UHGV virus genome: UHGV-0380352
DNA: 25,338 nucleotides
Direction: 5' to 3' (one strand)
Source of the DNA: a virus
Made by a program: the position numbers and the translations under genes. The stretch's first letter is position 1. Each line of letters starts with the position of its first letter. Below the pieces are notes generated by a model, which worked only from the letters and a program-made list of their open reading frames with translations, did no database searches and was not told the DNA's origin. Below, one piece after another: positions 23,424-23,665 of this stretch.

Positions 23424-23499
23424 TGGTGCTGGTTAACGGACTTGAACCGCTACCCATTCGCTTACAAGGCGACTGCTCTACCATTGGAGCTAAACCAGC
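23424..23499 (-). tRNA. Phage-encoded tRNA-Thr (anticodon UGU)
   Basis: Minus-strand 76-nt sequence GCTGGTT-TA-GCTC-CAATGGTA-GAGC-A-GTCGC-CTTGTAA-GCGAA-TGGGT-AGCGG-TTCAAGT-CCGTT-AACCAGC-A-CCA. Perfect 7-bp acceptor and 4-bp D stems, D-loop GG, T-loop TTCAAGT, encoded CCA; anticodon stem has one G-A mismatch. Hand-folded. Confidence 0.7.
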
Positions 23500-23504
23500 A
23501 TATT

Positions 23505-23579
23505 TGGCGGGACAGCGTGGACTCGAACCACGATAAGAAGGTTAACAGCCTTCCGTAATGACCTTTATACGACTGACCC
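23505..23579 (-). tRNA. Phage-encoded tRNA-Asn-like (anticodon GUU), possibly degenerate
   Basis: Minus-strand 75-nt sequence GGGTCAG-TC-GTAT-AAAGGTCA-TTAC-G-GAAGG-CTGTTAA-CCTTC-TTAT-CGTGG-TTCGAGT-CCACG-CTGTCCC-G-CCA. Perfect anticodon and T stems, T-loop TTCGAGT, encoded CCA; but a U-U mismatch in the acceptor stem and one in the D stem. Hand-folded. Confidence 0.5.
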
Positions 23580-23582
23580 AAA

Positions 23583-23625
23583 TAAAAAAAGCCACCGTTG
23601 CAACTTAAGAGTCACTAACGGCAGC
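23583..23625 (-). terminator. tR'-like intrinsic terminator downstream of the late promoter
   Basis: On the minus-strand RNA: stem CUGCCGUU / AACGGUGG (two G-U pairs) around a 17-nt loop, followed by CUUUUUUUAUUU; located between the PR'-like promoter and the tRNA genes, the arrangement seen for lambda tR' and the 6S RNA. Confidence 0.5.
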
Positions 23626-23635
23626 TTACCCTCTA

Positions 23636-23665
23636 ATTATGGCTAAATGGCTAATTGCATGTCAA
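23636..23665 (-). promoter_or_regulatory. Late promoter PR'-like (sigma70 -35 TTGACA / -10 CATAAT), Q-dependent antitermination region
   Basis: Minus strand reads TTGACA-(18 nt)-CATAAT, overlapping the 3' end and stop of the Q gene and just upstream of the tR'-like terminator; this is the canonical location of PR' and qut in lambdoid phages. Confidence 0.55.

Follow-up and report, generated by a model that had tools for sequence, protein, structure and literature searches.

The stretch of viral DNA analysed here, the UHGV virus genome UHGV-0380352 (25,338 nucleotides (nt); hereafter the window), is a P22-like prophage (Lederbergvirus, Sf6-type) that lies on the minus strand and is integrated at argW. 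Two tRNA genes of this prophage, one for tRNA-Asn(GUU) and one for tRNA-Thr(UGU), stand between the late terminator tR' and the lysis genes. Taken together, our results suggest that these phage genes are functional, that together they make up a small mobile cassette in the late-operon leader, and that they probably act both as spare tRNAs against the TOPRIM nucleases OLD and AriB and as a top-up of the decoder of ACA codons. The first-pass annotation of this DNA had treated the arrangement as noteworthy in itself; it has, however, been annotated in GenBank since 2004 (Sf6). The layout is already known: GenBank annotations of 2003-2004 record it, and genome papers on phage L, epsilon34 and phage 21 discuss it. 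What is new here is a sharper functional hypothesis.

Two tRNA genes in the late leader

ARAGORN returned both genes on the minus strand, with the same anticodons as those read in the first-pass annotation, and both are full-length matches to the Rfam model RF00005, whose gathering score is 29 bits (Table 1). In E. coli, the identity elements of asparaginyl-tRNA synthetase (AsnRS) are G34, U35, U36 and G73, and those of threonyl-tRNA synthetase (ThrRS) are G1-C72, C2-G71, G35 and U36. The phage tRNA-Asn keeps the AsnRS elements (GUU and G73) together with the CCA end and an anticodon loop identical to that of the host; tRNA-Thr likewise keeps the ThrRS elements and has the same anticodon loop as its host counterpart. 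The anticodon stems of both are completely different from the host's, and overall identity reaches 58% to the host tRNA-Asn and 69% to the host thrU. Both tRNAs appear to be old, diverged lineages. On sequence grounds, both genes are intact, and we consider them probably functional. An origin as captured copies of host tRNA genes was rejected, because the identity to the host is so low and because a megablast search with the cassette matches 369 genomes, not all 5,426.

The U-U mismatches that had been pointed out in the acceptor and D stems of tRNA-Asn are indeed present, being flagged in the Rfam alignment as U4.U68 (canonical 4:69) and U13.U22. They had been taken as a possible sign of a pseudogene or of an altered role, and the first of these ideas finds no support, since no element of the locus is more conserved than tRNA-Asn with its mismatches. 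The sequence is identical in 80 of 95 copies (family members from viral contigs), unchanged in phage 21, Sf6, HK446 and ST64T, and preserved at 74 of 75 positions in an unrelated bat-virome phage whose flanks cannot be aligned. Across 32 loci with homologous flanks, nucleotide diversity (pi) is 0.0045 for tRNA-Asn, counted only at positions left free by the search pattern, 0.014 for tRNA-Thr and 0.027 for the adjacent non-coding sequence, with 3 of 53, 6 of 76 and 45 of 243 sites segregating, respectively. The U.U oppositions at 4:69 and 13:22 are conserved, and tRNA-Asn is too invariant for a covariation test; among the few variants at the former pair, 4G or 68G gives a G.U pair and 68C leaves the position unpaired. 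A decaying pseudogene or a non-decoding RNA, with tRNA-Thr as the only functional member of the pair, would be compatible with these non-standard pairs, with the rare variants that strike the discriminator, the CCA end or the G1-C71 pair, and with the standing of tRNA-Asn as a merely secondary AriB target. We nevertheless regard it as highly improbable: besides the conservation just described, the cloverleaf is the minimum-energy structure of an RNA that scores 55 bits with GUU, G73 and CCA in place, the gene is retained where the second tRNA has been replaced or is degenerate, and several of the mismatch variants turn into G.U wobbles. The 'altered role' can be given a sharper form, in that tRNA-Asn may be a nuclease-insensitive spare tRNA.

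Five bases (AATAT) separate tRNA-Asn from tRNA-Thr, whose allele is identical to that of HK446. Three pairs of tRNA-Thr have undergone compensatory changes, namely U3-A70 to C3-G70, G5-C68 to U5-A68 and A49-U65 to G49-C65; three two-sided changes of this kind were matched by 9 of 500 column shuffles and by 0 slid controls. This tRNA also has oddities of its own that had gone unmentioned: C14 in place of the near-universal A14, an A15/U48 pair and a G27.A43 opposition. C14 is U in a few variants, and G27.A43 is kept in all 15 variants.

The elements upstream of the pair also bear out the earlier reading, which had proposed a TTGACA/CATAAT promoter overlapping the end of Q, a hairpin with a U-run directly ahead of the tRNAs, and control by Q antitermination. 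The promoter pR' is the sole strong promoter-like site that a consensus scan found on the minus strand within 22800-24300, and the Q stop codon (TAG, 23645-23643) falls within its spacer. Its homologue in Sf6 carries the annotation 'P R' (or P Late)', and the ST64T/L version differs by 1 nt. Tandem 8-bp repeats in the spacer, AATTAGCC/ATTTAGCC, the second of which includes the Q stop codon, form a putative Q-binding element (QBE). In phage L, AATTATCC/AtTTAgCC at the equivalent place was proposed as a QBE (PMC8022706); the window repeats differ from the proven QBE of phage 21 (ATTGAGCA/AATGAGCA). The Q protein is 82% identical to phage 21 Q, and tR' is identical to the phage 21 terminator. None of 200 shuffles of the tR' stretch was equally stable, and tRNA-Asn begins 4 nt past its U7 tract. 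The consensus terminator scan skipped tR' because of its loop limit of 8, and the stretch was folded directly. This combination of a PF06530 protein with a phage 21 terminator points to Q-dependent read-through of tR'. Homology with the phage 21 'aRNA' puts the likely transcription start near 23629, with the hairpin following about 4 nt later. Terminated at tR', the pR' leader would amount to an RNA of about 42-45 nt made constitutively, nearly all of it terminator hairpin; the equivalent leader RNA of Shiga toxin (Stx) phages is described as a regulatory small RNA (PMC7547250).

Alignment with lambda, HK75 and mEp506 delimits the cassette as a T-run, ATTT, tRNA-Asn, AATAT and tRNA-Thr, inserted between the U-tract of tR' and AACTGAGCCGTAG; from AACTGAGCCGTAG to the start codon of S, the four sequences are almost identical. 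In lambda, this slot holds about 225 nt of non-coding filler in place of the cassette. HK75 shares Q/pR'/tR' with the window but has another filler and no tRNA. Within the HK75 filler (L002, about 1290-1325) there is a perfect T-arm-like sequence, GCCGGTTCGATTCCGGC, and a weak match to the 3' part of tmRNA (12.7 bits, E = 0.0045), and this filler may be a tRNA remnant. The slot contents found are Asn-Thr, Asn-Thr-Gly(UCC), Asn-degenerate-Gly(UCC), Asn-Phe-Thr, and Asn with a degenerate second tRNA (ST64T), with Asn present and first in every version. Gly(UCC) follows Asn, with or without an intact Thr, in four viral contigs (L237, L238, L132 and L226), and Asn-Phe-Thr occurs in Tbat2_3 (L247). 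In ST64T (L246, about 981-1052), the second 'tRNA' combines the acceptor stem and T arm of tRNA-Thr with a replaced and shortened D/anticodon region, and this ST64T/L element may be a degenerate or recombinant derivative.

The cassette is widespread. A 521-nt query over the region retrieved 181 phage records and 1,388 of 5,426 E. coli genomes. The 156-nt tRNA pair is present in 369 of the 5,426 complete E. coli genomes (about 7%), where it is routinely annotated by PGAP, as well as in 15 plasmid records, and the cassette is also found in many Salmonella and Shigella phages. Both window tRNAs are 100% identical to those of phage 21, Sf6, HK446, mEp506 and Kapi1. In HK446 (L250, JQ086372), ARAGORN finds window-identical Asn(GUU) and Thr(UGU) genes at 711-866, where GenBank annotates no tRNA.

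Several different leaders precede tRNA-Asn. Among the 95 members, about 36 have the phage 21 QBE/promoter, about 29 the window/Sf6/L type, about 18 the lambda 6S-RNA/tR' type and 5 a fourth type, and there are singletons besides; the bat-virome phage has yet another terminator. In all contexts, a terminator hairpin and a U-tract lie directly 5' of the tRNA, and only the T-run and ATTT are common. Because tRNA-Asn follows at least four unrelated promoter/terminator types that share nothing else, the cassette has neither space for a separate promoter nor a conserved one belonging to it, and a consensus promoter scan found no promoter-like site between the tRNAs and S. The tRNAs would accordingly lack a promoter of their own and be made from the late transcript, which bears on the own-promoter question left by the authors of the phage L study.

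We also considered whether expression of the tRNAs could do without Q, with an unrecognised promoter or leaky read-through from pR' in the lysogen as its source, the benefit then going to the lysogen and not to the lytic cycle. In lambda and Stx phages, pR'-type promoters are constitutive (PMC7547250), and since tRNAs are stable, read-through of a few per cent could build up. In phage BTP1, whose region is 97.6% identical to the 521-nt query, the RNA-seq of the lysogen by Owen et al. lists genes with more than 100 transcripts per million 'excluding the two tRNA genes' (PMC7067206), a wording which implies that the two are treated as highly expressed; the supplement of PMC7067206 contains no such values for them. 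The frequent spontaneous induction of BTP1, which is unusually high and could alone produce such a signal (PMC7067206), means that Q-dependent and leaky expression are not separable there. Against Q-independent expression stand the strength of the terminator (-20.4 kcal/mol, U7), which ends 4 nt before the tRNA, and the upstream sequences, which are unrelated among the contexts and hence hold no conserved promoter. Altogether, we consider expression independent of Q improbable.

Possible roles in nuclease evasion and codon supply

In the mechanism that we propose, pR' would fire constitutively and RNA polymerase would halt at tR', just ahead of tRNA-Asn. Only polymerase modified by Q would be expected to pass, and polymerase from pR that has been modified by N might do so too. 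Given a Q-dependent passage of tR', the phage's own Thr(UGU) and Asn(GUU) decoders would therefore arrive as late proteins are made in bulk. Both tRNAs would have to be processed and charged, as we infer, and two benefits could then follow. The first would be the replacement of host tRNAs destroyed by abortive-infection TOPRIM nucleases (Thr in the case of OLD, Thr and Asn in the case of AriB), and the second the topping up of an ACA decoder that the host has in one copy, for late genes in which ACA and ACU abound. Counter-defence and codon supply are not mutually exclusive and can hold together.

As to the first benefit, OLD of phage P2 has been described as an abortive TOPRIM tRNase (bioRxiv 10.64898/2026.07.10.737580, July 2026). 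It depletes the host tRNAs Thr(UGU), Gly(UCC), fMet, Val(UAC) and Pro(UGG), cutting after nt 27-29, and plasmid-borne Thr(UGU) of T4, Bas32, Bas33 or HK446 restores the plating of HK97, HK542 and Bas34 under OLD, which the E. coli Thr(UGU) allele does not (same preprint). The HK446 tRNA is credited there with 'strong counter-defense'; stability under OLD was demonstrated for the Bas32 tRNA only, the HK446 allele being judged by rescue. In this cleavage zone (positions 27-29), tRNA-Thr reads GUC in the window and ACU in the host.

The second nuclease, AriB of the PARIS system, has Lys(UUU), Thr(UGU) and Asn(GUU) as its main targets (Belukhina et al. 2025, PMC12409363). It needs U36AAU39C40/N41, cleaves between positions 40 and 41, and no longer cuts when U39 is changed to A; the T5 variants of the Lys, Thr and Asn tRNAs neutralise PARIS (PMC12409363). 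Lambda, which is without the cassette, is restricted by PARIS (PMC9122126). With the position numbering validated on T5 tRNA-Lys (UAAACC, as published), positions 36-41 of Thr(UGU) read UAAUCA in the host, UAAGCG in the window and UAAGCA in T5, and those of Asn(GUU) read UAAUCC, UAACCU and UAAGUU, respectively. The U39 that AriB requires is thus gone from both window tRNAs. The window pair corresponds to two of the three main PARIS targets, and the Gly(UCC) of sibling cassettes is an OLD target.

On these grounds, we put forward, with somewhat less than even confidence, that, as late translation begins, the cassette provides Thr(UGU) and Asn(GUU) tRNAs insensitive to the nucleases and that counter-defence is a real selective function; tRNA-Asn, too, would then be resistant to the nuclease. 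A broader proposal, also tentative, is that temperate lambdoid and P22-like phages could carry the Asn(GUU)-Thr(UGU) cassette, to which sibling versions add Gly(UCC), for the specific purpose of countering the TOPRIM tRNases of P2/P4-family competitors. If true, this would explain why Asn, of which the host has four copies, is never lost and never displaced from first place. The OLD preprint describes HK446 as having a single tRNA and suggests that this tRNA may do no more than replace a host tRNA gene interrupted by the integration (bioRxiv 10.64898/2026.07.10.737580), a suggestion that the proposal would contradict. HK446 carries both tRNAs, and in the window that explanation does not apply, the prophage sitting in a tRNA-Arg gene and not in one for Thr or Asn. 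Compensation for the attachment-site tRNA was rejected as well: the prophage is integrated at tRNA-Arg(CCU), and the cassette lies 21 kb off in the late leader. A further role that phage tRNA genes might play is to offer an attachment site to satellites inserting into late genes (bioRxiv 10.1101/2022.07.18.500453).

As to the second benefit, codon usage was compared between the late operon (5,647 codons) and a sample of 40 annotated genes from the chromosome of an E. coli ST131 strain. ACA occurs 16.6 times per 1000 codons in the late operon and 7.3 times in the host sample (2.3-fold), and ACU 16.1 and 7.5 times (2.1-fold); the ACA share of Thr codons is 28% versus 13%. For the Asn codons (AAC and AAU together), the figures are 47 and 36-42 per 1000, or 1.1- to 1.3-fold. 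The host genome has one gene copy for Thr(UGU) and four for Asn(GUU). Codon supply accounts for Thr reasonably well and for Asn poorly. The first-pass annotation had suggested that the tRNAs supply codons for the AT-rich cargo or for the tailspike. The cargo idea fails, because the acyltransferase is poor in ACA (2 of 17 Thr codons) and is encoded on the plus strand, outside the late operon. The tailspike (ACA in 16 of 50 Thr codons; 30 AAU versus 12 AAC) and the ejection proteins fit better, so that for the tailspike and the late genes the suggestion stands as far as ACA is concerned and falters on the Asn codons. AGA and AGG are enriched 5.7- and 4.6-fold in the late operon (5187-23181, minus strand), above any codon read by the cassette, and no tRNA-Arg is carried.

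Pure codon supplementation for the late genes, without any role in defence evasion, would account for the enrichment of ACA and ACU next to a single host Thr(UGU) gene. It could also draw on the coat gene, with 16 AAC versus 3 AAU, an argument for codon supply that has likewise been made for phage L (PMC8022706), and on the Gly(UCC) of sibling cassettes, which reads GGA, a codon enriched 2.3-fold. However, with its codons scarcely enriched and four host genes to read them, tRNA-Asn, the member always present and always first, is the hardest case for such a supply, and the most enriched codons of all, AGA and AGG, have no tRNA in the cassette. Moreover, the E. coli Thr(UGU) gives no rescue from OLD and the phage allele identical to that of the window does, and so the phage sequence itself matters. 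We consider codon supplementation alone rather unlikely.

Several points weigh against the combined reading, in which spare tRNAs and ACA supply act together. Lys(UUU), which PARIS targets above all, is missing from the cassette, and full rescue from PARIS took all three T5 tRNAs (PMC12409363). The HK446 tRNA-Thr was tested from a plasmid only and did not rescue lambda, and the OLD resistance of HK446 is credited to the protein Oad2 (bioRxiv 10.64898/2026.07.10.737580). The matches to the nuclease target lists were noticed after the fact, and they are confounded with codon supply, as ACA and GGA are also rare codons; the loss of U39 in two tRNAs could be due to chance. The very low diversity of tRNA-Asn might in part reflect recent horizontal spread, not selection. 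The enrichment of AGA and AGG without a tRNA-Arg in the cassette weakens the codon-supply half, and the phage L paper left the origin of the tRNAs from late mRNA undecided (PMC8022706). In the literature searched, no paper was found that ties the lambdoid Asn-Thr cassette to PARIS.

It has long been asked why temperate phages retain one to three tRNA genes when their codon usage is otherwise like that of the host, and these results touch on that question. The cassette is common, genetically simple, present in well-studied phages and matched to two recently defined sets of nuclease targets, so that it is well suited to telling codon supply and defence evasion apart.

Prophage context

The coordinates of the cassette and its surroundings are collected in Table 1. 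On the host side, the flank contains mlaA and a formate/nitrite transporter gene, followed by the tRNA-Arg(CCU) at which the prophage ends. Other prophage genes include the virion genes, among them a Sf6-type small terminase, the lysis cassette, Q and a NinI-like phosphatase. As had been stated earlier, the tRNA genes lie upstream of the lysis genes, with S, R and Rz identified by Pfam as the next genes. From AACTGAGCC on, the leader between the tRNAs and S is near-identical among lambda, HK75, mEp506 and the window. This leader contains a second terminator-like hairpin, GGCAUGAGGUU...AACCUCCUGCC, followed by GUUUUG; it is kept in lambda, HK75 and mEp506, and a U.C mismatch of the window copy is a G-C pair in lambda. 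With hairpins on both sides, the tRNA cassette is bracketed by two terminator-like structures. At the other end of the late operon, the low-GC acyltransferase gene stands beside the tailspike with its esterase domain, a neighbourhood suggestive of an O-antigen acetylase coupled to a deacetylating tailspike.

Table 1. Positions of the features discussed, in window coordinates.
Feature	Position	Strand	Description
tRNA-Arg(CCU)	2150-2224	+	63 bits; beside the tyrosine integrase, marking the prophage end; argW-type attachment site
Tyrosine integrase	2350-3540	+	Adjoins tRNA-Arg(CCU)
Acyl_transf_3 acyltransferase	4000-5163	+	37.5% GC
Tailspike	5187-7397	-	P22-type head-binding domain and GDSL/SGNH esterase domain
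Lysis cassette S-R-Rz	21934-23181	-	Pfam Phage_holin_3_1, Phage_lysis; Sf6 genes 60-63; first protein genes of the late operon
Rz	21934-22401	-	Part of the lysis cassette
Endolysin R	22398-22874	-	Part of the lysis cassette
Holin S	22858-23181	-	Part of the lysis cassette
Lambda-type leader, tRNA slot to S	23182-23423	-	-50.3 kcal/mol, z = -4.6; long hairpin 23416-23367
Second terminator-like hairpin	23336-23307	-	Between the tRNAs and S; GUUUUG at 23306-23301
tRNA-Thr(UGU)	23424-23499	-	ARAGORN; Rfam RF00005, 61.5 bits; 76 nt, encoded CCA, G1-C72, C2-G71, A73
tRNA-Asn(GUU)	23505-23579	-	ARAGORN; Rfam RF00005, 55.3 bits; 75 nt, encoded CCA, G73, 4-nt variable loop
Terminator tR'	23584-23625	-	Hairpin 23625-23591, U7 tract 23590-23584; -20.4 kcal/mol, z = -4.2
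Short late leader	23584-23629	-	Equivalent of the phage 21 'aRNA' (50 nt, ending at the tRNA in the phage 21 record); terminator and qut in Sf6
Late promoter pR'	23636-23665	-	TTGACA (23665-23660), 18-nt spacer, CATAAT (23641-23636); 11/12 sigma-70 match
Putative Q-binding element	23641-23656	-	Tandem 8-bp repeats in the pR' spacer; read from sequence
Antiterminator Q, phage-21 type	23643-24161	-	172 aa; Pfam PF06530 Phage_antitermQ, E = 1e-25

Comparison with known systems

The closest relatives of the arrangement are found in phage 21 and Sf6 (AJ237660 and AF547987; also HK446, mEp506, Kapi1, BTP1 and SPN9CC), with which the window shares the length of the 5-nt tRNA spacer, the terminator, the position between tR' and the holin gene, and the lambda-type sequence from AACTGAGCC to S; its Q and pR' are of the Sf6/L variant. 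In the Sf6 record (AF547987), the order is gene 59 (Q-like), pR', qut, tR', tRNA-Asn, tRNA-Thr and holin, with pR' described as 'nearly identical to phage 21 late promoter' and the tRNAs as 'similar to phage 21'. The phage 21 record shows a promoter and a 50-nt terminated 'aRNA' that ends exactly at the start of tRNA-Asn; two tRNA genes are reported in the paper on the complete phage 21 genome (PMC9119081), and a related prophage is said in the epsilon34 paper to have Asn-GTT and Thr-TGT tRNAs. The window differs from phage 21 proper in the C-terminal part of Q and in the QBE/-10 region, a difference that has already been described for phage L (PMC8022706). With phage L (PMC8022706) and ST64T, it shares near-identical Q, pR', putative QBE, terminator and tRNA-Asn. 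Their second tRNA, unlike that of the window, is a degenerate relative, which tRNAscan called Leu-UAA (PMC8022706) and for which ARAGORN makes no call.

In 933W-type Stx phages, Plunkett et al. reportedly described in 1999 the tRNA genes ileZ-argN-argO between pR'/tR' and stx. These phages resemble the window in that tRNAs come first behind a Q-controlled terminator and ahead of the late and lysis genes; unlike the window, they have rare-codon tRNAs for Ile and Arg, other types of Q and pR', and toxin genes next in order. The Ile and Arg tRNAs are not known to be among the published targets of PARIS and OLD. A paper on the Stx-phage pR' (PMC6266700) makes no mention of tRNAs.

The possible functional parallel is with the nuclease-insensitive tRNAs by which the virulent phages T5 and T4 neutralise PARIS, OLD and similar systems (PMC11464382, PMC12409363, PMC10264068), and which the cassette resembles in its Thr(UGU) and Asn(GUU) isoacceptors and in the loss of U39 beside the AriB site. 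The 5' strand of the Thr anticodon stem is also similar, being GUCGC in the window and GUUGC in T5. Unlike T5, the window carries no Lys(UUU), and its tRNAs are just 59-62% identical to those of T5. Finally, in place of an array of 20-plus tRNA genes with promoters of its own, the temperate phage has a cassette of two genes that appears to be placed under late antitermination.

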